From contig CM126223.1 of assembly GCA_052327205.1 (NCBI GenBank), forward strand, positions 57,908,001 to 57,972,000: a DNA stretch of 64,000 nt, written 5' to 3'. The notes under the pieces were generated by a model. The model was not told where the DNA came from and made no database searches. It saw nothing but the letters and a program-made list of their open reading frames with translations. The position numbers were made by a program, and so were the translations under genes. Within the stretch, counting starts at the first letter, position 1. Each line of letters opens with the position of its first letter. Source of the stretch: Somniosus microcephalus (lineage: Eukaryota). Positions 6,411 through 36,300 of the stretch are shown here, in pieces.

Positions 6411-6978
6411 GCATGTGTTGATTGCAAAGGTAAAACACAGTGAGACCATGGAGGCATTTAAAAGCGAGGATGAAAATGTTTAAATTGACTCGCTGGGGTC
6501 TGGCGGACCTTGGAAAGGATGGGGGTAATAGGATTGTGGGACTTTGTGGGTGAGATGTGGGCTGTGTTGTTGCAGATGAGTTGAAGCTTGCAGAGAGTTG
6601 AGGCAGGCCAGCTGAGAGCCTTGGAGAAGGAGGTAATGGCTTGGACTAGGATTCTAGTGGCAGAGGGAGGAGTAAAGATGGCTCAAGTTAGAGGTGGAAG
6701 AATGTGGCCTCGGATGTAGTTATTGGCCAAGCAGTGCACCAAGGTTCTGCACCTCCTGAGGCAGCAGTTAAGAAAATTGATCAAATCTAGACCGTGGGTG
6801 CCCTGTTGTATCAAAATATTAATGTTTGCTTTCTGTATCCTGTCAAGTATCTTGTATACTTTCATAAGATTTCCTAATGAACTCTAGCTTATCAAGCCAT
6901 TCCACACAGCTCATTTTCGAACACTGGGGATTGTCTTTGCACTCATTTGCACGGTCTCTAGGACCTGATGTACTTTAT

Positions 6979-7716
6979 GGGCCAGTAATCCCGGTCCCAA
7001 CGCGTGAGTACGGACGGGGTACTCGCGCGTGGGCCCGTTGGAAGTGCCGGATTTCAGCAGCGTATGCGTGGGAAACCGGCATTTCCTCCCAAGGGGTTCA
7101 GAGGTCCAACAGGACTCTGCGCTCACGCGTTGAACTTCCTCCTTTTTGACAGGTTTGCCCGTGTGTAAGGGACTCCACTTTTTAGAAATGTAAAAAGGAG
7201 GTGCAAGGTCTTGATTCTTTAAGGTAAGTGGTCTATTATTTAAAATTATAACATTTTTTCCACAGCTTTATTGTTTTTAAGGACTTTACAGTAAGGTAAG
7301 TTTATTTTTAGACCCGATTTCTTAAATTATTTTTTTCAAAAATTTGATTAATTGTTTAAAATAGTTTTTTAAAGTTATTTATAGTTCATTTAATTAGTGG
7401 GATGTTTTTTAAAATTTTATTTAAAGTTTAAGTAGTGTTTTGGGCGCCCGTAGTTTTCATGAGTTTGACAGTTCTTACTATCAAACTCATGAATGAAGTT
7501 TTCCCTCCCCTGATTGGCTGCCCAGTGCTCACCTGATCCCAGCTGGCACATCGAACTAACTACGCCGCTGGATCAGGCAAGCACAGCGCGCCGACAGCTG
7601 AACCGGGCCAGTGACAGGAATTCCAAGCAGTCCCAGGCTTCAGCTGTCGGCGCGCCGGGTAAGTGCACATCAGGGGCTTGCACGCGGGGCAAGCCCCCGA
7701 TCCTAATTTCTGGGCC
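6979..7716. mobile_element. Non-autonomous DNA transposon (MITE family A, PIF/Harbinger-like), oriented opposite to 22774-23528
   Basis: Termini GGGCCAGTAATC / AATTTCTGGGCC, flanks TAT/AAT. CpG-rich palindromic subterminal regions around an AT-rich core. Interrupts CR1-like sequence. Confidence 0.85.
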
Positions 7717-7899
7717 AATATGTTGCAACCAGAACTGTGTGCCATTCCCCAGGTGCAGCCTGACCAGAGTGCTGTATAACTCAAGTACAGCTTCCAAGTA
7801 TTAAAAGTCAACTGTTTTAACAAAATAACCTAGCATCTTGTTCATTTTATTTCTTCACACTGGTCTTTTAACTTAACTTGCCCTTGATGACTTCTGTTC

Positions 7900-18063: not shown

Positions 18064-19512
18064 TATGTAGGTGAGGTTGATCAATTTTTTTTTTAAGGGT
18101 CTTTTGTTTTGGTTTATTGCTTTTTCCCCTGTTCTGAAAGTTATGTTAATATTCAGGTACTGAATTTGTGATTATGCTGCTAGCCAGTGATAAGTGACAC
18201 TTTTTAGAAGTTCTGCCTTTCTGTCTCTTATTACACTCGCCATGTTGGATTCTTAATGTAGTTTTTTTCTTTTTTTTCTACCCCCCACCCCCAATGTTTC
18301 CCTGACTCTACAGTGTGGCACAAAGGAAATGTCTTGACCCAGAAAAGCATGCAATGCCTTTTCTTCATCTTCTCCCTCTTTGGCTGGAATCCTTCACTTT
18401 CTATCTTGAAGTGCTGCCACCATCTCCTTGCACTCTGCAGTCTGTCACTAGTACATATTTGATAGGAAAAAGTCAAATACTATGACCGTACCACATTTGT
18501 CACTGTGGCTGGCCCATGATTAATTTAGAGTGTGGTTATAACCCAACTAATTGAGGTTCAACCATAGAAACTTCACGGAGTCTCCAATTCGAAAATCAAA
18601 ACTTGCACTTAAATATACAGAGTAAAGCCCTTAAATGGCCTGGGTAAGGATGGAAAACCAAATGTGGTGCAGTTGGGCCAAATTACAATGTAAAATTTTC
18701 TTTTTCTGTCAATTTTCTTCCTCTCTCCTGAAGGCGGACACGCACAGTTCCATGAGCAACCCCTACTACCTTGCCCAATTGAGCATTCCTTATGGGTGAA
18801 CCTAAGCAGTGAGTCTTGGCAGGCTGTTCATCCATAGGAAACATCTCAACCCAGCTGAGCTGGAACCTGTCCTTGCCCAACAGCACAAGTACACACTTCA
18901 GGGATCATTGAATAGCAATCAGGAGTGGGAAGCTTAAAATTTCCTCCCTGACCAAGGGGTGAAGAGTCTAATTATAGTGCCTAGCTACTTCCCCCAAGAT
19001 CAGGCAATTCAGCACAGACTGGCCATTGAACTTGAGACCTTCTGGGTCTATATAGCACTTCACCAGCTGAGCCAGTGAAGCAAAATGTCAGCATTTTATG
19101 CCTCCTGAATGTATATTCCATTTTTGTTTACTTGAAGTTGTTCAATTAATGTAATATTTTCAATATATTCTGCAGAGTGTTGATTCATATTCCGGTAACT
19201 CTTAACCATTTTTTTGTACCTGTATACTGTTCAGCTGGGTGTGTCATTCCTTTGTAATCCAATATAAAGCGCATTATTCAGGTCACTTTGTTGCTCGTCA
19301 GCAGGTTTATTAAGTGGTTTTGGTTTTTATAGTACCTCTGACCTTAAACTGCAAAACTCATTGCATGGTGAGGTCAGTTGCTTTTTTTAAAAATCCCCTT
19401 TGAGTTTGATGAACATCATTCGTATGTAGAAAGTAAGTATTTTAAATTGCTTTGAGATTTTATGTTTAAGGAATTTATTGCAGGCATCCCAAACCATTTT
19501 GTTTTCTTGCAG

Positions 19513-19722
19513 ATCTGTGACTTTGGTCTTGCCAGAGTAGAAGAACTTGATGAGTCCCGTCACATGACCCAGGAAGTTGTCACTCAGTATTACCGAGCAC
19601 CAGAGATTCTGATGGGCAGTCGCCATTATACTAATGCCATTGATATCTGGTCTGTAGGGTGCATCTTTGCAGAGCTTTTAGGCCGTAGAATCTTATTCCA
19701 GGCTCAAAGTCCCATTCAGCAG
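19513..19722 (+). CDS. NLK: NLK coding exon (about exon 6): ICDFGLARVEELDESRHMTQEVVTQYYRAPE...QAQSPIQQ
   Basis: ttcttgcag acceptor and CAG|gtaatc donor. 210 bp with DFG, the NLK-type TQE activation segment and APE. Confidence 0.98.
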
Positions 19723-22470: not shown

Positions 22471-22773
22471 ACCCAATTGTCGACCAGACAGGATACTCAG
22501 TCAGCTACAGAACCGATTCGCGGGAGCAAACTAATCTCTCTGTCTACCAAAAATGCTGCCGGATCAGCTGTTCCTGTATCAGCTGATTTTTGCCAGATGT
22601 CCCTTATTTAAGTTGCTGCTTGAAGGTGGAATTGGGTGCAGAATCAAAAGCGCTTGTGTGTTTAAAAAAATTATCACCAGTGCAGAGGTAACTGGGTAAA
22701 TGTCCGTGTCTGCAACGTTGCTTGACTTATGGGTGGATCATAGATTTTTGCTGGAAAATGGGGCGGTCATATT

Positions 22774-23528
22774 GGCCCAGAAATTCGGGTCGGAGGCTTC
22801 CCGCTGGTGCAAGCCTCCGACCTGCACTTACCTTGCGTGCCGGCCGTTGAGCTGTGGGCCCCCGTAGAATTGCGATCCTGGGCCTCCTCCAACTGCCGGC
22901 GCGCAGTGCTTGCGTATCCCAGGGGCACAGTTAGTTCGATGCGTCCCCTGGGATCACGTGGGCCATGGAGAGCCAATGGTAGCAGGGAATGCTCCATTCG
23001 TCAGTTTGACGAAGAGCTGTCAAACCTATAAATACTATAAGCTCCAAAACATCACTAAAACTTCAAATAATTTTTTTTTTAATCACATTTTTAAAATAAC
23101 TATAAATTACATGAAATAACTATTTTAAACAATTTAAATTTTTGAAAATTAATTAAATTTTCTAACGGGGTTAAAAATAAGCTTACCTTTCTTTAACGTG
23201 TTTAAAAATAATAAACCTGTGGGGGGAAAAATGTTTTAATTTTAATTAATTCACCACTTACCTTGTTAAAAGCAGGCCTTGCGCCTGTTTTTACATGTCT
23301 AACTTCTGAAGACTTTTTTTTTCTCCAGGTTTCTCCGGGAAGGTAAGTTCAATGTGCATGCGCTGCCTCTCCCGCGCACGCGTTCCACCTCGTAACCCCT
23401 TCTTTCAGGGGAGCGGAAGTTCCGGTTTCCCGCGCATGTGCAGTGAATGCACGAAACCGGCACTTTCGTTGGGCCTACGCGTGAGTACCCCGTGCATACT
23501 CACGCGTTGGGACCTGAATTTCTGGGCC
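22774..23528. mobile_element. MITE family A (PIF/Harbinger-like)
   Basis: Perfect 13-bp TIR GGCCCAGAAATTC / GAATTTCTGGGCC with ATT on both flanks (22771-22773, 23529-23531). Confidence 0.9.
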
Positions 23529-24633
23529 ATTATATGTAAATATGTACAGTAATCAAACAATACAAACTGAAGGAGAAATGACAGCAAGCAAAATAGACTA
23601 ATGTAAATTTGGTTTACATATAGTAGAAGAATGCAATTGAGATGATGGATTTTAGACAAAAATCTTATTGGTGCATCTAATTTAAGTATAAATCTAAATA
23701 TTATGCAAAATGAAAATTATATGTATTTGATATTGCAATTGTATGTATTGCTAACTGTTGCATATGTAAAACTTGCACTCCTGTACAATGGTGCCTCCAA
23801 AGTAGAAAAAGGTAATTATTTCTGGTAGTTACATTCAATCTGGTATAGTTTCAGTTGCTTGTCTATTCAATTAATAATTATATATCCTAGCGGAGTCAAG
23901 TGAGCAATTGATTTATGTAAGTAGCTGGCATGGGTATCTGGACCAGATTTATTTATGTAGCTGGTGTGGATAACAGGCACATTTTATTTTGTAAGCGCCT
24001 TCGGCTGTTTTCCTACGTTAAAGGTGCTACGTACTGTATATCACGTTTTTAAAAAATCCAGCAATATCACCATAATAGACCAACTGGTAATCATTAATTT
24101 CTCAGCAGCAATGAATAAATATGAGCACATTCCTGTGGGTAGTTTCTAGAAATCCTAGCATAGAACCCAGCACAATTCTATACTATTGCCAAAAGCTCTC
24201 CAGTCTATGTTCTCTTAACAACAAAATGAATGTTGTGGATAAATTTCAGGACCCTTTTTATAATTCAAACATTTATGATTAGAGTCACTGGTGTGCAAGA
24301 AGAGACATCTTTGGTTTTAATTATAAATCAGTAAAATGAAGTTTATTAAAAATCAAAACCTAGTGGTTTAAAAAATGCCAGAGTTGGACAATGTAATTTT
24401 TATTTTACAATTCAGAAACCTCATAATTCTAACTAGCCCTATGTACAGGTGAATTATCCAAGTTTCTCTCCCTTGAAATAAATGGTAAATTGCTGCATCA
24501 ACGATTCATATAGCTCTCCTTGCAGTGATTTATACCCAATTTGATTTCTAGTATTTTTTCAAAAGAAACTAACACTGATTTCAAAAGCTCCGTTTCCATG
24601 ACTCCTAAACAGTTAATTATTTATCTGTGGCAG

Positions 24634-26502: not shown

Positions 26503-26733
26503 AAAAGCAAAATACTATGGATGCTGGAAATCTGAAATAATAACAGAAAATGCTGGAAATACTCAGCAGGTCAGGCAGCATCTGTGGGGAGAGAAACAGA
26601 GTTAACGTTTCAGGTCGAACTGGGGGGGAAAAAAATGTTCTGACGAAGGGTCATCGACCTGAAACATTAACTCTGTTTCTCTCTCCACAGATGCTGCCTG
26701 ACCTGAGTATTTCCAGCATTTTCTGTTTTTATT
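26503..26733. mobile_element. Penelope-like element fragment (inverted pseudo-LTR) with a hammerhead-like core
   Basis: Inverted arms (ACAGAAAATGCTGGAAATACTCAG / CTGAGTATTTCCAGCATTTTCTGT) and a 15-bp TSD ACAAGAATTTATTAT (26488-26502, 26734-26748). CTGACGA...GAAAC at 26640-26665. Confidence 0.8.
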
Positions 26734-29072
26734 ACAAGAATTTATTATGATCTGTTAGTCTTCCTGTAGGATCATTTATGGTAGACAGACTTGCTTTTCT
26801 GCACACACACATGTCTTCATGAGTTGCAATCTATAAACTTTCAAAAAACATTATATAAAATGATCACTCCTAGTGACATAATGAAGGTATGAACTCAGAC
26901 ACCCTCTTTAATAAATAAAAAACATTACAGAGTGGGCAATCTGGGAGTATGCAGGACAAGTCCAGGAATTGCTCCTGTGTGTATTTATGATGCAAGCAAG
27001 CAAATGCATAGACTTGTTTTTTCAAGTGTAGCAGAACAAAGGACATCTAATCCAATGACATCACAAGACTGATGTCAATCTATGTCTGCAGTGCTGTTGA
27101 AGCACCAGAGATTGGATCATTTATATTTGGGAGTGCTGTAGACAGCACACCTTCCAAATAGTGCCCTTACTGTACCTATGCCTTTAAATGTAACTTGCTT
27201 TCTCTTTTCATGAGTTTAAAATTTCAACATAGTTATATGCTGACCCTAAGGTTGCCTCTTTTTGCTTTTATTTACTTTTGTGCTTGGTTAAGCATTGTGG
27301 CTGGAGAGATGCAGAATATCATTGATTCTGGCTGCTTTGTTCTGTGCCTTCCAAGTGCCTTAGTAACTTCAAGGTTACTGCAGACAGACCTTCATTCAGC
27401 TACTTAGCAAATTAATTCTGCCAGCGACTTTCTCGGCCCTTAGACTTAAATTGACTTGTTGCTTATTTATTGTGACATTCAGCTGACCTCATGAGCTGTC
27501 AGTAGTATAAGAAGGTGGCATAAATTATTGATTTGCAAATTCATCTCATCTGAATTCAAAGTTTCCAATTTCATGATTGAGTTTTTGCTACTTGAAAATC
27601 AAAGTGGCCAAATTAAAATAAGTATTTCAAATAATTAAATATCTACTGTAGTTTTCACTGATTTATCAAATAGTTTTGGAAACTGGCATTTAATCCGAGA
27701 TACTAGTTACATTTAATATCCATATTTGTATATCCTATTATTTTGTATTTGTTTTGTAGCAGCTATATTGAACAAAGTACTAATCAGCTTTAGAGCTGAT
27801 TTTCAAGTGCTTCCAGTTAAACCAGTCTGTAATCACCACAGTGGCAGCTGATCTCCTAATGCTGTTCAAACCTGATCTTTCAACTTGTTGAAACTGAAAT
27901 TAAAATGGTCTCTGACCAATTTCACTATTCTTGATAAAAGTAAGCGTCGTTCATAGTTTTTAAGCAAATACATTTTTTTAGCAATAATGAAATGCAAGTG
28001 TATTACGATACAAACTGGACTTGAAATTTCTACTAGTGCTCTAACCCCCAAAATTTGAATTGATGAAAAATTAAAATTATAAATGCCTTTTTTAAAATTT
28101 CTTCCAAGTATTTTCCCCTTGACTACTGAAGACACTGATCATGCTGCACATCAAGGTACTGGCCATTCTCTTGCAAATCAGTTTGGTCCTCCTTCATTTG
28201 ACAATCTGTGCATTGTCAGGCTATTTCACATGGAGGTCTTCACAATTGAGCCCATTACTATTCTCTCCTGATGACCACCCATGCACACTCTAGATCAGGA
28301 ATTAATGGATAGGAGTCAGGAGTGGGCGCCTTGGCTTATTTTCCTGTTTCTCTAGCCCAGGGGCGCTGAGGGTAATTGTAGCATTCCTACTGCCACCCTG
28401 GCTGAGATCAGCTAACTCAATACAGACTGGGAATTGAACTTATGATCTTCCTGATCTCTATGACTTAATTTCACAATGGCAGTTCATCGCTTCCTCTAGA
28501 AGGAGCTGATGTACCTTTCGTCAAGACATTCTTTTTGGAAGGCGCACCTATTTATTTTCTTCAGTTTTCACCCTTCTAATGAGTTGGCGTGATTTGTTGC
28601 CCCATAACATCTGCCTCTGTAGCAAGCACAGTGAGGGAAATAAGCTTGAAGAAAGAATGTGGCTGCAGTTATACATAGAAATACATAAAAGTTACAACAC
28701 AGAAACAGGCCATTCAACACAACTGGTCGGTGTTGCTATTTACCTTCCATGCTAGCAAATAGTTCAAATCACATTTATCCACCCTATTCCCATATCCCTT
28801 CAACCCCTTTTCCTTCATCCACCTATCGAGTATAATCTTGAATGTTGACATTAGTTTCTGCCTAGACCACTAACCCTGTAACTGAATTCCACAGCATCAC
28901 AATGTGTAAATATGTTTCGCTTGCTCTTTGTTTTAAATCTTACATTTAATCTTGTATCTATGGCCCCTCAACTACTAGAAACTGTCTGCTTCCATTTACC
29001 ATGTCTCACCCTTGCATAATTTTAAACACTTCTATCTGCATTGTTCTAATGAAAAAAATACCAATTTTTCAA

Positions 29073-29697: not shown

Positions 29698-29959
29698 TTT
29701 TTCAAATCTGCTGTCTTATTTGTATTTCCTCCTACCGGTCAGCATCCTAGTGAATCTGCATTGTACCCTCTAAAGCCTCATAATCCTTCCTATAGTTTGA
29801 AGCCCAGTACAGGTACTGCGCATAGTGCTCTTAAGTGATCTTAAGGTTCTGTGTAGGCGCGTCATTGCCTCTTGGCTTTTATATTCTACACCTCTTGAGA
29901 TACAAGGTAACATTAAGTGGTATGAAATTAGGGTGAGGATAGCAAACTGGAATAAAATT

Positions 29960-30312
29960 GGTTTGAAAGAGTTAAGGGCAGTTTTTCCAGAGTGGTTGGA
30001 AGTGGGTAAATCTAGAACTCGGGGACACAGTCTCAGAATAAAGGGTTGTCCTTTTAGAACTGAGATGAGGAGGAACAACTTCTGGGGGTAGTAAATTTGT
30101 GGAATTCTCTGCCCCAGAGAGCTGTTGAGGTTGGGTCATTAAATACATTTAAAGTGGAGATAGACAAATTTTTGCAAGGTAAGGAAGTGAAGGGTTATGG
30201 GAGCAGGCTGGGAAGTGGCTTTGAGCCCAAGATCAGCCATGATCTTATTGAATGGCGGAGCAGGCTCGAGGGGCCAAGTGGCCTATTCCTGCTCCTGTTT
30301 CTTATGTTCTTA
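29960..30312 (+). mobile_element. CR1 3' end (younger, sense)
   Basis: SRTRGHSLRIKG.PFRTEMRRN and WNSLPQRAVE..SLNTFK.EIDKFL peptides, ending in a TCTTATGTTCTTAT tail. Confidence 0.88.
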
Positions 30313-31023
30313 TAAAACCTAGAATTCTTTTAGCTCTTTTGACAATCTTATCAACCTGAGGTGCTACATTTAATGTCCTGTGAACCTGTACCCCGAAGTC
30401 TCTGTTCTTCCACATCACTGAGCCTACTTCCATTCCAAGTTTAAATACTGTTTTTTTTAAACAAATGGGGTCACCTCACTATTACGGACATTAAATTCCA
30501 TCTTTTTAGCCAATTCCTTCACCTTATCGATATTGTTTTGCAGCTTCCTTTGGTCTTCTAAAGAATTAACTCTATCTCTTACTTTATTGGGGCAGAAATT
30601 CGGATCGGGGGCTTGCCACGCGTGCAAGCCCCCGATCTGCACTTACCTGACGCGCCTGCCGTTCACCTCCAGGGACGCCTGGAATTCCTTTTTGAAACAG
30701 AAGAATCCCGGGCAGCGTCTGACCTCACGCCGCCCAGGAGTGCAGCCAGCGCGAAGCCTGGAGCGCGCAGTGCAACTGAGACACGCCCCTTGAGGTCTCA
30801 GTTTAATAGGACACGCCCCCAATGTTTCTCACAAGCTGCAAAGCATTTTTACATGCAGAGCAGCATTTCAAATAGGTTTTTGGTATATTTATGAAGCTTT
30901 GGGTAACTTTTATAAACGTTTACATTATTTTGAAGAATCTGAAGTAGTTTTAAACAGAATTAAAGCAATTTAAAGACTTTTAAAAGCCCTGAAATTTTTT
31001 TCATTCCATTTATTTGGCAACGT

Positions 31024-31368
31024 CGTCGTCATACGTGTCTTCACACTGTTCCCTTTGGGGAACTGTATGAAGTGGTGGAAGGATTTATGGCCGTGATTAA
31101 AGCTCCTTCCGTGACCGTAACCATCTTTGTACCAGCCATTAGGGTGGTTAGTCCTATGGCGGGAGGGTTTTACGGGCTCCCACAAGCTATACGAGGAGGG
31201 GGGGGCCACCCACACCCACGGACGCAAATATCCCACTGGATGTCAACCCAGAATTTAAAGCCGGAGCTCCGACTCCACTTGCTGGGACTGTCTGGAGCGG
31301 GGTTCGAAACCCTACCCCGTCTGGCCCAGCGGCGGGGATCCTACCGCTACGCCAAAGGCCCACTCCGA
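31024..31368 (-). mobile_element. tRNA-headed SINE, copy 1 (CpG-rich, 3' hairpin and (GAC)n tail)
   Basis: On the minus strand: A-box TGGCGTAGCGG, B-box-like GGTTTCGAACC, tail GACGAC. Flanked by TT(G/A)GCAACGT direct repeats at 31014-31023 and 31369-31378. Confidence 0.8.
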
Positions 31369-31381
31369 TTAGCAACGTGAA

Positions 31382-31537
31382 ATGGCTGGAATGAGCACAA
31401 TTCACGGCATTAAAAGAACTTACAATTGAACTGATGATGATCTCAGCAATCTCCTCAACGAGGTGGAGGCGCAGCGCCTGCTCATCATTGGTAATGAGAA
31501 GTCCAAGGTGCTGCAAAAAGGACAGATGATAGCTTGG
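31382..31537 (+). pseudogene. Remnant Myb/SANT-like DNA-binding ORF (Harbinger accessory ORF-like)
   Basis: MAGMSTIHGIKRTYN*TDDDLSNLLNEVEAQRLLIIGNEKSKVLQKGQMIAW resembles the KR..NF(S/T)..EL..L..EV......LFG.......K..AW pattern. One in-frame TGA at 31427. Confidence 0.6.
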
Positions 31538-31615
31538 TCTTTCAAGTGGCAGCATAGGGCTCCAGTCACGGGGAGGGAAAAGGCACAGGAAACGTATGGG
31601 TGTCACCTTTTGCGC

Positions 31616-31970
31616 GGAGTGGGCCTTTTGCGTAGCGGTAAGCATCCCCGCCGCTGGGCCAGAAGGAGTAGGGTTTCGAACCCCGCTCCAGACAGTCCCG
31701 GCAAGTGGAGTCGGAGCTCCAACTATAAATTCTGGGTGGACATCCAGCGGGATACTTGCGTTCGCGGGTGTGGGTGGCTCTCCCCCCCCCCCCCCCCCCT
31801 CAGATGGGTTGTGGGAGCCCGTAAAACCCTCACGCCATAGGACTAACCACCCTAATGGCTGGTATGAAGATGGTTATGGTCACGGAAGGAGCGTTAACGT
31901 GGCCAGAAATCCTTCCACCACTTCATACAGTTCCCGAAAGGGAACAGTGTGAGGATACGTACGACGATGA
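31616..31970 (+). mobile_element. tRNA-headed SINE, copy 2 (inverted relative to copy 1)
   Basis: A-box-like TTGCGTAGCGG (31628), B-box-like GGTTTCGAACC (31672), 3' hairpin GTTCCC-GAAA-GGGAAC and GACGATGA tail. CCT(T/C)TTGCGC direct repeats at 31606-31615 and 31971-31980. Confidence 0.8.
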
Positions 31971-32069
31971 CCTCTTGCGCAATGCACCTCCTTGGACCCT
32001 CAGTCGCAGATGCGAGGGGGCAAATCGTGCAATTGTTAAATTTTTCATTTTATTGACATGTAAAATGTT

Positions 32070-33311
32070 GGCCCAGTAATTCCGTTCCAAACGCGTGAGT
32101 ACGGTCGGGGTACTCCCGCGTCTGGCCGGAGGAAATGCCGGTTTTCAGCATGCACAGCGCATGCGGGGAAAACCGGCATTTCCTGTCCTCTGAACGAAGG
32201 GGTTCGGAGGCAGAACGCGTGCGACTGCACAGGCAGCGCGTGCGCAGTAAAGTTCGCCGGTTTCATTCATGCTTTCAGTAAGGTTAAGTCCTTACAACTT
32301 ACACATGAAAAAAGCACGAGTACAGTTGCTCCAGAGGCTGCGGAGGAAAATATATTTTATTGTGGAGCTTCTGAAAGGCAATATTTTTGTTTGGGAAAGG
32401 GAGGAAAGTTATTTTAAGAAATGCTGAGGTAAGTTTTAAAGTTTATTTTTGTTTTTTAAAACGGGTTTTCAGTACTGTAGGTAGAAGGAGCAATTGTGGC
32501 TGTGAATTGAATTTGTTGTGTTTATTAAATGTGAAAATGACTCCAACATTTTTAAGAAAGAAACTTTTCATCAGTAATATATTCTTTTAAGTATGTATGT
32601 CTATATATTCCTTTACTTATGTGTATGAATGTATGTATTTCATTATGACTTTCAGAGAAAGTAACTTATTGGAAAATCATAATTAAATACATACATTCAT
32701 ACACAAGTAAAGGAATATATACATATACGTAAAGGAATATATACGGACATACATACATAATTACTTAAAAGAATATATTACTGATGAAAAGTTTATTTCT
32801 TAAAAATGTTGGAAATGTTACATTACTCATTTTAGAACAGTCATTTTCACATTTAATAAACACAGCAAATTCAATTCACACAGCCACAATTGCTCCTTCT
32901 ACCTACAGTACTGAAAACCCGTTTATAAAAAAAAAATTAAACTTTAAAACTTACCTCAGCATTTCTTAAACACTTTCCTCCCTTTCCCAAACAAAAATAT
33001 TGCCTTTCAGAAGCTCCACGATAAAATATATCTTCCTCCGCAGCCTCTGGAGCAACTTTACACATGCTTTTTTCATGTGTAAGTTGTAAGGACTTAACCT
33101 CACTGAATCCATGAATGAAATCGACGAAGTTCACTGCGCACGCGCTGCCTGTGCAGTCGCACGCGCTGTGCCTCTGAACCCCTTCGTTCAGAGGACAGGA
33201 AATGCCGGTTTTCCCCGCATGCGCTGTGCATGCTGAAAACCGGCATTTCCTCCGGCCAGACGCGCGAGTACCCCGACTGTACTCACGCGTTTGGAACGGA
33301 ATTACTGGGCC
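32070..33311. repeat. 1.24 kb foldback: inverted duplication of a family A-type terminus
   Basis: Arms 32070-32653 and 32672-33311 are reverse complements with few mismatches, separated by a loop of about 18 nt. Confidence 0.93.
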
Positions 33312-33526
33312 ATTGTCTGCAAATTCTGGCACCATTTTCTTTTGACCTATATCCAAATCATTGATGAACACAGTGAGCAAAAGTGGCCCCAGAACTGAAC
33401 CCTATGGGACACCATTACACACTTCCAACCACTCTGGAAAAACTGCCCTTAACTCTCTTTCAAACCAATTTTATTCCAGTTTGCTATCCTCACCCTAATT
33501 TCATACCACTTAATGTTACCTCCCAA

Positions 33527-34973
33527 ATCCGTGTCCATCTTTCATGCAACTCCATGTTTGAACAATCTGCAATCAGGTTTCTGCCTCAACCACAGCACTG
33601 AAATGGTCCTAATCTAAGTCACAAATGACATCCTCTGTGACTGTGATCATGGTTCACCAACCCTCCTCCTCCATATCCACTTGTCTGCAGCCTTTGACAT
33701 GGCTGCCCAAGCCATCCTCTTCCAATGCCTCTCCTCTGTTGTCCAGCTGAGTGGGTTTGCCCTTGCCTGGTTCCACTCTCTCTCTATTCATTCTCAGGAT
33801 GTGGGCGCCACTGGCAAGGTTGGCATTTATTGCCCATACCTAGTTGCTCTTGAGAAGTTTGCGGTGGGTGCCTTCTTGAACAGCTGCAGTCAGTGTGGTT
33901 TAGGTGCTCCCACAATGCTGTTAGGCAGCGAGTTCCAGGATTTGACCAAGTGTCAATAAAGGAATGACTATGTATCATATGTCCAAGTTAGGATAGTGTG
34001 TGACTTGGGAGTGATGGTGTTCCCATACACCCGAGGCACTTGTTCTTCTAGGTGGTGTAGGTCGCTGGTTTAGGTGGTGCTACCGAATAAGCCTTGGCGA
34101 GTTGAGGAACTTGGGCTCCACCAGTGCTGTCATGGACAGATACATCTGCGACAGGTAAATTGGCGTGGACCAGGTCAAGCAGGTTGTTCCCTCATGTTGG
34201 TCCTATCACCACATGCTGTCAGCTATGTGTGCCTATCCAGCAGAGCCAGAGAATATCCTGCAATAGATTATATTCCCTCCCCAACTGTTGCCTCCAAGGA
34301 TCTATCCTTGGCCACCTCTTATTTCCTTTGTACATGCTGCCCCTCTGCAACATCATCTGTAATATTGTCTGCCTCTGCTGCTGCCTCAGCTTACCGGAAT
34401 CCCTCATCCATGCTTTTGTGACCTCCAGAGTCAAGTATTCCAATGCTCTCCTGGCCAGCCCCTCTCTTCCACCCTCCATAAATTTGAGCTCATGATAATC
34501 TCTGCTGCCCATATCCTAACCACACCAATTCCTGTTTGACCATCACCCCTGTTCAATTGGCTCTTGGTCCACCAATGCATCAATTTAAAAATTTTCATCC
34601 TAGTGTTCAAATCCCTCCATGGCCTCACCCCTCCCTCTCTTTGTAAGCTTCTGTGGCTATATTGCCCTCCAAGAACTCGGCATGCCTCTAACTCTGGCCT
34701 CTTGTGCATTCCCCATTCCCTTCGCCCGAGGATTGGTCGACATGCCTTCAACCGTCCAGGCCCTAAGCTCTGGAATTCACTTCCTAAGCTTCTCTCTCTC
34801 TCTCTCTCTCTCTCTCCTTTTAAGACACTTCTTAAAACATCTCTTTGACCAAGCTTTTAGTCACCTGATCTAATATTGCTTCCTTTGACTCGGTGTCAAT
34901 TTTTATTTGATTATGCTCCTGATATGCCTTGATGTTTTACCGTGTTTAAGGTGCTATATAAATGCAAGTTGTT
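33527..34973 (+). mobile_element. L2-type LINE fragment containing an antisense LINE piece (about 33787-34250)
   Basis: Degraded QSGF...HSTE, LSAAFD, LIHAFVTSR..YSNALL and FKILILVFKSLHGL.P-like peptides. Ends GTGCTATATAAATGCAAGTTGTT. Confidence 0.8.
34791..34816. repeat. (TC)n microsatellite within the L2 fragment
   Basis: Read directly from the sequence. Confidence 0.9.
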
Positions 34974-35924
34974 AATCTTCTCTAGTAATTTCCCATGTGG
35001 TCTCTTGTGAAAAGCTTTCCTAAAGTCGTGTACACTGCATCCACTAGATTTTCTCCTATCATATCCGTTACCTCCTCAAAATATTCTGAGGATTGTAGTG
35101 CACGATTGACCCTTTTGAAATCCATGCTGGCTACTTCTAACTAATTTCTCTAAGGATGAAATTAGATAAAGATTTTACATTTTCTTTCCTCAACAGGTGT
35201 TAAGCTAACTAGCCTGTAATTACCAAGATTAGCTCAATCTCTCTTTTTAAAAATGGGTACTACATTGGCCGCTCCCCTGTGCTCCGGCAGCACATCCACA
35301 CTCTCGAGCACTGAAATATAATTTCTAGGGCCGTTGCGATTGTGTCTCTCATCTCCCTCAGGATCCTAGGATGTATCCCATCAGGCCCTGGCAATTTGTC
35401 TTCCTTTAGAATAACTAAATTATCTAACATTTTCCTTTCATTGATCGTAAGTGAACTCTGTTGAAAATGGCTCTGGCAAGGAAGCAGGAGTGCTTCTCCT
35501 TTATAAAATTCACGTATTAATGGAATAATTGTAACAATTATAATCCATTTGTACCATTTGAGGAAAACACCTCATTTTGAACTTATAATGAAGATGCTAT
35601 TGCTGTTGGTAGTTAATGTTTGATTCATACCTGGGCCTTCCATGTCTGGTAATAGTTGATGAATTGAATGGACAACGCACTTCAGAGGTAGCAGAAATGG
35701 TGCTACTATTTTCCATCTGGGACACAAGTGGTAGATGTGGAGGAAATTTTTTTTTAAAGGAATTGCCAGGTTTAAATGAAATGCAGTGGACAAGTATAGA
35801 AAATAATTTGTACAAGAATTATGAATTTAAAATGAACTATGCCTGAAAGAGTGTTGTACCCTCCCCATCTATACTTCCACCTCTAACGTTGAGTTTTTAT
35901 TATAACACAGACTTTGCAGCTGGG

Positions 35925-36300
35925 ATTGTGCACCTTAGAGCAGAGAAGATTTGATAGAGGGGTTCAAAGTTATGCAAGGAGAGTAGAAGGGGAGAAACTG
36001 TTTCCACTGGGGAGGAGGGTCGGTAACCGGAGGGGACCGATTTAAGATAATTGGCAAAATAGCCAGGGGGAAATGAGGGGAAAAAATGATGCAATGAATT
36101 ATGATCTGGAATTCACTACTTGAAAAGGTGGTGGAAGCAGATTGAATAACTTTCAAAAGTGAATTGAATGTATACGTGAAAGGAGAAATTTGCAGCACTT
36201 TGGGCAAAGAACAGGGGAGTATGATTATTTGGATAGCTTTTTCAAAGAGCTGGCACAAACGATGGGCCGAATGGCCTCCTATGCTGTGTGATTCTGTGAT
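35925..36300 (+). mobile_element. CR1 3' fragment
   Basis: GATTTGATAGAGG.GTTCAAA and ATCTGGAATTCACT blocks, ending GATGGGCCGAATGGCCTCCT...TGTGATTCTGTGAT. Confidence 0.8.

Follow-up and report, generated by a model that had tools for sequence, protein, structure and literature searches.

A head-to-head SINE pair inside a probable PHIS/Harbinger-type composite transposon family

Results

The window, i.e., the whole stretch of 64,000 nucleotides analysed, contains an inverted pair of SINEs nested in a DNA transposon that is itself inserted into a LINE remnant (Table 1). The remnant, which we take to be CR1-like, is recognisable from reverse transcriptase (RT) frames reading NKVRDRVNSLEDQRKLQ... 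(NKVRDRV...) to the left of the transposon and ...GSVLGPLL...FADN to its right, and its short pieces had no match in Pfam. A search with the CR1-like peptide gave seven unnamed proteins among 12 candidates. The transposon termini, GGGGCAGAAATT and AATTACTGGGCC, start with GG and are complementary at 9 of 12 positions, and both ends match two MITEs of about 750 bp in the same window (6977-7722 and 22768-23530); no transposase ORF is present within the element. The ATT/ATT duplications found at the composite and at MITE 22768-23530 depart from the TWA target-site duplication (TSD) of strict PIF/Harbinger elements and agree, together with a terminal inverted repeat (TIR) starting GG, with the ANT duplication and termini of Pangu (Harbinger2) elements. 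ATT or AAT also stands just before the composite terminus among the loose ends listed for the RNA reads described below. The right TIR is supplied by a palindrome made of two inverted right-end modules, whose arms are about 95% complementary and whose CpG observed/expected ratio (o/e) is 1.04; miRNA-like Rfam matches within it scored far below the gathering thresholds and were discarded.

Three further features accompany these elements. The two MITEs are 75% alike, the first being flanked by TAT/AAT and the second by ATT/ATT. An element of about 200 bp at 26533-26736, self-complementary at 82%, is probably another MITE. Finally, the whole region is bracketed by a CR1-like 105-bp inverted duplicate with a single mismatch (29905-30009 and 33415-33521); it looks much younger than the sequence around it, suggestive of inversion-duplication or conversion at this place.

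Table 1 Features of the composite transposon and its surroundings (positions in the window)
Feature	Position	Strand	Remarks
LINE RT remnant (presumably CR1-like), left part	30330-30588	minus	minus-strand frames; resumes at 33312-33521
Left TSD of the transposon	30586-30588	+	ATT, 3 bp
Non-autonomous PHIS/Harbinger-type composite with both SINEs	30589-33311	+	2723 bp; termini, ATT on both sides
TSD of copy A, tail side	31014-31023	+	TTGGCAACGT
SINE copy A	31024-31367	minus	A-box at nt 14, B-box at nt 58, body, double hairpin, (GAC)n tail
TSD of copy A, head side	31369-31378	+	TTAGCAACGT
Broken ORF remnant, labelled Myb/SANT-like	31382-31614	+	TGA at 31427-31429; apparent frameshift near 31540
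TSD of copy B, head side	31605-31615	+	ACCTTTTGCGC, 11 bp
SINE copy B	31616-31969 (start 31615/6)	plus	A-box altered to TTGCG; expanded poly-C
TSD of copy B, tail side	31970-31980	+	ACCTCTTGCGC, 11 bp; flank recurs in loose ends of three runs (X17, X4, X11)
Palindrome, right-end module fold-back	32070-33311	.	1.24 kb; supplies the right TIR
Right TSD of the transposon	33312-33314	+	ATT, 3 bp

The two SINE copies, A and B, are each about 345 bp long, 91% alike (31 mismatches, or 9.0%, and 13 gap columns in an alignment of 343 columns) and lie head-to-head with 247 nt between their heads, and alignment and coordinates thus bear out the pair of similar, opposed units of about 350 bp that an initial annotation had read from the sequence. 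The other attributes it gave to these units hold equally well: A-box- and B-box-like motifs are present in both, starting 44 nt apart in copy A and 45 in copy B, a spacing typical of tRNAs, with one extra T in the B-box; the 96 nt at the 3' end form two hairpins (z -5.6 and -3.0), after which comes the (GAC)n tail; the minus copy contains no T4 run, the first on the sense strand of A occurring at nt 383 (copy B has one already at nt 12); both units are CpG-rich (o/e 0.77 and 0.72; whole window 0.35); and no further copy lies within the 64 kb. The GGAGTGG/CCGCTCC stem that it placed at the 5' end does form in the fold, but probably begins about 6 nt ahead of the acceptor-stem start expected from the A-box. 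The head, which may resemble tRNA-Asp, gave no tRNA gene with ARAGORN, no tRNA or ribozyme match in an Rfam search at E<=10 and no cloverleaf in the minimum free energy fold, and SINE heads are known to often fail such tests. Exact-pattern scans returned no match to the tail hairpin in viral, prokaryote and metagenome contigs and none to an 18-mer of the SINE body in viral contigs. Three metagenome matches to the same 18-mer were attributed to chance, likeness being confined to 18-19 bp, as was a resemblance of the pre-tail region to BivaV-SINE1 (nine identical letters).

The spacer between the SINE heads consists largely of an ORF remnant that is presumably Myb/SANT-like. Its ATG (31382) lies 3 bp past the TSD of copy A, as first annotated. 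The 53-residue read-through of this short and degraded frame matched no Pfam family at E<=1, and the remnant yielded none of four candidates in a 5.8-billion search and no match with phmmer over 1.84 billion. A deletion subfamily (31382 to 31547, with TGGC microhomology) has lost 164-165 nt of the spacer, leaving its ends in place and the SINE heads about 83 bp apart (depth 1273 in run X1, and eight RNA reads in run X17).

A search of public sequencing runs with 30589-32068 listed 18 runs, 12 of them with the stretch or part of it. Three organisms (A, B and C) hold at least half of its words, while organisms D and E hold 0.08 and 0.05; runs of merely 13-24 million letters already contain 0.23-0.28 of the words, and none of the indexed runs listed with the stretch is an RNA run. 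Four of the 18 runs were mapped on 30440-31650 at 84% likeness, leaving out organisms B and E: contigs of organisms A (X1), C (X4) and D (X11), and raw RNA reads of organism A (X17, 24% read). Besides the places listed, the mapping holds 161 variants, 21 joints and 526 loose ends, which could hide empty sites.

The CR1-like flank (30440-30480) is near single-locus, with depths of 84 (X1), 0 (X4) and 0 (X17). Mean depths over the transposon left part, the SINE and the ORF remnant are 641494, 1674988 and 494099 in X1, 11650, 58008 and 13316 in X4, and 56, 170 and 61.6 in the RNA reads, summed contig depth not being a copy number. The left 1.06 kb of the composite and the ORF remnant are therefore multi-copy in the read data. 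Judged from long low-depth contigs, a single locus would correspond to a depth of about 40 in X1 and 4 in X4. The mean depth of a contig at diagnostic places amounts to 140-200 times that level, a rough lower bound, and the composite probably has of the order of a hundred copies or more.

Both SINE junctions recur as well. A 102-nt contig of X4 (30966-31060) spans the junction between transposon and copy A at a depth of 217, about 54 times single-locus, as compared with 3.3-5.1 for long low-depth contigs and joints of the same run. On the side of copy B, the listed loose ends before 31022 have a consensus that equals the right flank of B, reverse-complemented, in X17 (51 reads, agreement 0.71), X4 (four contigs) and X11 (one contig), and this flank is the commonest one of SINE tails in the RNA reads, where depth also continues from the ORF remnant (61.6) into the head of B (43.4). 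The A junction is thus found in organisms A and C, and the B junction in A, C and D. Among the joints listed, three of low depth (34.5, 41.6 and 74.6) skip into 31368, consistent with relatives that do not have SINE A, with intervening letters visible in one of them. The composite family is pieced together from junctions, no listed contig spanning the whole stretch. Its right half may be local, the mapping having ended at 31650, before the tail side of B and the palindrome.

The initial annotation had given each copy a separate 10-bp TSD with one mismatch, which is right for A, whereas the TSD of B has the single mismatch but a length of 11 bp. By chance, a flanking repeat of this kind (10 bp, at most one mismatch, slack of 3 either way) occurred at 70 of 20000 random position pairs. 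The mismatch between the two sides of TSD A is peculiar to the window locus: position 31016 is A in 128626 of 128771 depth units in X1, in 2392 of 2392 in X4 and in 28 of 28 RNA reads, so that in the family TSD A matches its partner there. Depth falls from 128771 at 31016 to 35950 at 31007 in X1, from 2392 to 388 in X4 and from 28 to 4 reads in X17, and since most of it stops short of 31007 it is anchored in the SINE tail. The direct repeats are not part of the SINE consensus, because those of A and B differ from each other.

The description of this SINE as rare is true for the window alone, its mean depth exceeding that of the transposon body in X1, X4 and X17. These depths are those of a dispersed, high-copy family known from read pieces rather than full solo copies. 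In X1, 57 contigs run out of the SINE tail into flanks that mostly differ from one another (agreement 0.36), and at 31130, 31193 and 31258 the mapped SINE is dominated by letters that neither A nor B has (51-92%), which together indicate that solo copies are probably the majority. Of the 157 RNA reads covering 31031, about 35-38% come from passenger copies, as judged from junction reads, a figure for transcribed loci in one run, 24% read. Two minority letters, T31130 and G31193, are common to A and B and absent from 51-88% of the mapped SINE depth, and the two copies therefore derive from the same source subfamily. They differ at 15 of 58 CpG positions and at 16 of 285 others. Outside CpG positions their divergence does not differ from the one between the palindrome arms (18 of 418; Fisher p=0.48), whereas CpG positions differ more between A and B than between the arms (5 of 54; p=0.027). 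A separate observation concerns a loose end at 31083 in X17, where 43 RNA reads agree with the SINE over its final ~60 nt before turning into a variant with an insertion of about 10 nt and substitutions, either another subfamily or the 3' UTR of the partner LINE.

RNA reads over the SINE unit (X17, one run, 24% read) show a strand imbalance of about 2:1 (first-mate depth 113.6 versus 56.5), and, provided that the library follows the common stranded design, the excess would be on the SINE sense strand. A start cluster at 31367, which bears on the putative Pol III transcript of about 380 nt from copy A, was not among the 10 of 15 places listed for this run. Read-through RNA could pair A with B over a predicted 329 pairs. 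A-to-I editing was considered and set aside: A>G and T>C made up 67 of 196 RNA variant places versus 29 of 121 in X1 (p=0.06), and were not in excess over C>T and G>A (p=0.52).

Discussion

The recurrence of both junctions shows that the two insertions predate the amplification and are common to several organisms. Since the junctions are multi-copy, the locus is not a fresh double hit, and their recurrence across organisms supports the earlier proposal that an ancestral element had captured the SINEs and only then spread. The locus is very probably one copy of a composite family, in which an ancestral non-autonomous PHIS/Harbinger-type transposon took two SINE inserts of opposite orientation and was then amplified. 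It is an unusual nested composite, every part of which is of a known kind.

The SINE would be transcribed from its own A and B boxes and reverse transcribed by target priming, presumably by a LINE that recognises the hairpin-plus-triplet tail, with staggered nicks giving the 10-11-bp TSDs and the AC/ACG microhomology between tail and target. A transposase acting in trans on the GG(G/C)CCAG..AATT ends would then move the composite by cut-and-paste with duplication of ATT, in this case into an old CR1-like LINE. Both SINEs would be carried as cargo while the SINE also spreads alone, which would give it two routes of amplification. The two hits would be most simply explained as successive insertions into a master lineage with a mild target-sequence bias, and no function would be required.

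A cause may be added to this history, with which it is compatible: the SINE pair may itself have been favoured, by disabling a truncated DNA-binding ORF or by altering expression or silencing, so that a double-inserted master out-transposed its siblings. We consider such an advantage unlikely. One copy sits 3 bp before the ATG and the other near the domain end; SINE-bearing elements seem to be the majority of ORF-bearing copies (RNA depth on the B head against that on the ORF); the listed joints that skip copy A are all of low depth; a random double insertion within 250 bp is expected at only about 1e-5 to 4e-4 per element copy (assuming one SINE per 300 to 50 kb); and an A-B duplex could form in read-through RNA. 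However, the turnover of masters by drift yields the same pattern, and the ORF has a stop and an apparent frameshift besides.

Whether the SINE prefers certain targets bears on the earlier inference that two independent hits point to an insertion preference for the transposon. Two hits did occur, once, in the ancestor, and the locus itself is no independent evidence of targeting. In SINE orientation both target sites read T-x-T-C^A-C-x-T-T, i.e., TC^AC(G/C)TT, with 2-3 nt of tail-target microhomology (AC/ACG), which at n=2 hints at a target preference. Seven of nine positions are identical between the two pre-insertion sites (p ~0.002; ~0.016 when the AC microhomology is left aside; span of positions chosen post hoc), and of the 15 occurrences of TCACSTT in the 64 kb, the two in the non-SINE segments of the element are both occupied. 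A partner endonuclease with this preference could have hit the same two sites independently in many transposon copies, which would also give multi-copy junctions, and targeting of a DNA transposon is known from Tx1-type LINEs. Such repeated targeting nevertheless has only a slim chance of accounting for the family: the sites number two, the solo tails in X1 lead into unlike flanks, the tail-side TSD of B, as in the window, has a C where the head side there has T, and the same C stands in the consensus of X17, X4 and X11, which fits one inherited event, and the deletion subfamily fits descent from a master.

A bolder combination, in our judgement just as doubtful as repeated targeting, would have a TC^AC(G/C)TT-preferring SINE colonise the DNA-binding gene of a PHIS element, the inverted pair then raising the success of the master (because it disabled a truncated competitor protein or formed a 329-bp RNA duplex), and at least a third of SINE copies arising by DNA transposition, as a partnership of class I and class II elements.

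Assembly in another host followed by horizontal transfer, the host shift that had also been floated at the outset, is highly improbable. The CpG content is high relative to the window, and the B junction occurs in organism D, which has 0.08 of the words. Nevertheless, the CpG decay between the copies points to a stay in a methylating genome, and nothing in it calls for a different host; the same genomes contain the SINE in abundance, together with solo SINEs, SINE-free relatives and related MITEs, and the scans of viral, prokaryote and metagenome contigs gave no foreign relative. Two private insertions of a dispersed SINE at the window locus, by chance or at a local hot spot, fit the separate TSDs and the 9% divergence of A and B, but can hardly be maintained, being contradicted by multi-copy junctions that recur in other organisms (the contig of depth 217 and the B-flank loose ends).

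Set against ancestral capture followed by amplification, the known systems offer partial parallels. The spacer remnant, which we presume to be Myb-like, differs in this respect from the second ORF of Pangu. In the available parts of their report, Han et al. describe no known motif in that ORF (PMC4482050, PMC12730594). As far as the same sources extend, PIF/Harbinger elements have a TWA TSD and a Myb/SANT ORF, while Pangu, the Harbinger2 of Repbase within the PHIS superfamily, has an ANT TSD and TIRs of 11-40 bp starting AG or GG (PMC4482050, PMC12730594). On these descriptions, the composite resembles Pangu in its short TIRs beginning GG and in a 3-bp TSD, ATT, that fits the ANT rule, and departs from PIF/Harbinger in having a TSD other than TWA. 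It further stands apart in having no transposase ORF, a 1.24-kb palindromic right end and two SINEs aboard. With internal A and B boxes and a length of about 350 bp, the SINE is similar to tRNA-derived SINEs with RTE-type tails as described in the accessible parts of two studies (HaSE1; hagfish SINE2-1_EBu and SINE1-1_EBu; PMC5786205, PMC7245038). According to the same parts, HaSE1 and RTE-N1_ATr have a 3' hairpin and then a triplet repeat, ending in (GAT)n (PMC5786205), and hagfish RTEs have TSDs of 6-19 bp (PMC7245038). The SINE here shares with these their hairpin plus triplet tail and a TSD length within the hagfish range, and is unlike HaSE1 and RTE-N1_ATr in its tail unit, GAC, and in the large share of copies spread by a DNA transposon. 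Compared by description, it would also share a tRNA-type head, and probably the host group (presumably cartilaginous fish, to judge by the CR1-like repeats), with HE1, SacSINE1 and SINE2-1_CM. In the sections at hand, these shark SINEs are reported as a V-SINE with a HER1 tail, a DeuSINE and a SINE with a CR1 tail, respectively, paired with CR1-type LINEs (PMC3747384, PMC4824008). Exact look-ups of short motifs in the accessible supplements of PMC5786205, PMC7245038 and PMC4824008 gave no convincing sequence match to the SINE.

The literature search found no account of an inverted SINE pair amplified in a DNA transposon; Repbase, Dfam and subscription papers lay outside it, and the repeat databases may already contain the family. 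That a carrier can be amplified after a nested insertion is known in principle, and Pack-type elements and Helitrons with captured retro-copies are established examples of cargo-carrying non-autonomous transposons. As in these, foreign sequence between transposon ends is amplified passively; unlike in these, what is carried is a complete inverted pair of SINEs from a single subfamily, TSDs intact.

The copy number, age and insertion polymorphisms of SINEs are normally taken as a record of retrotransposition. Here, a DNA transposon appears to have multiplied a sizeable share of the SINE copies, TSDs intact, and in this lineage the dating of subfamilies, target-site statistics and SINE-based phylogenetic markers would be distorted as a result. 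The composite family also lends itself to asking, in a natural setting, whether a non-autonomous transposon fares differently with cargo than without. Each composite scatters a ready-made inverted repeat of about 345 bp, a dsRNA substrate if read through in introns.

Elsewhere in the window, a protein kinase exon at 19510-19722 (Pfam Pkinase, E 8e-19), presumably NLK-like, carries a TQE activation motif, and the composite may lie inside an intron of the gene to which this exon belongs.
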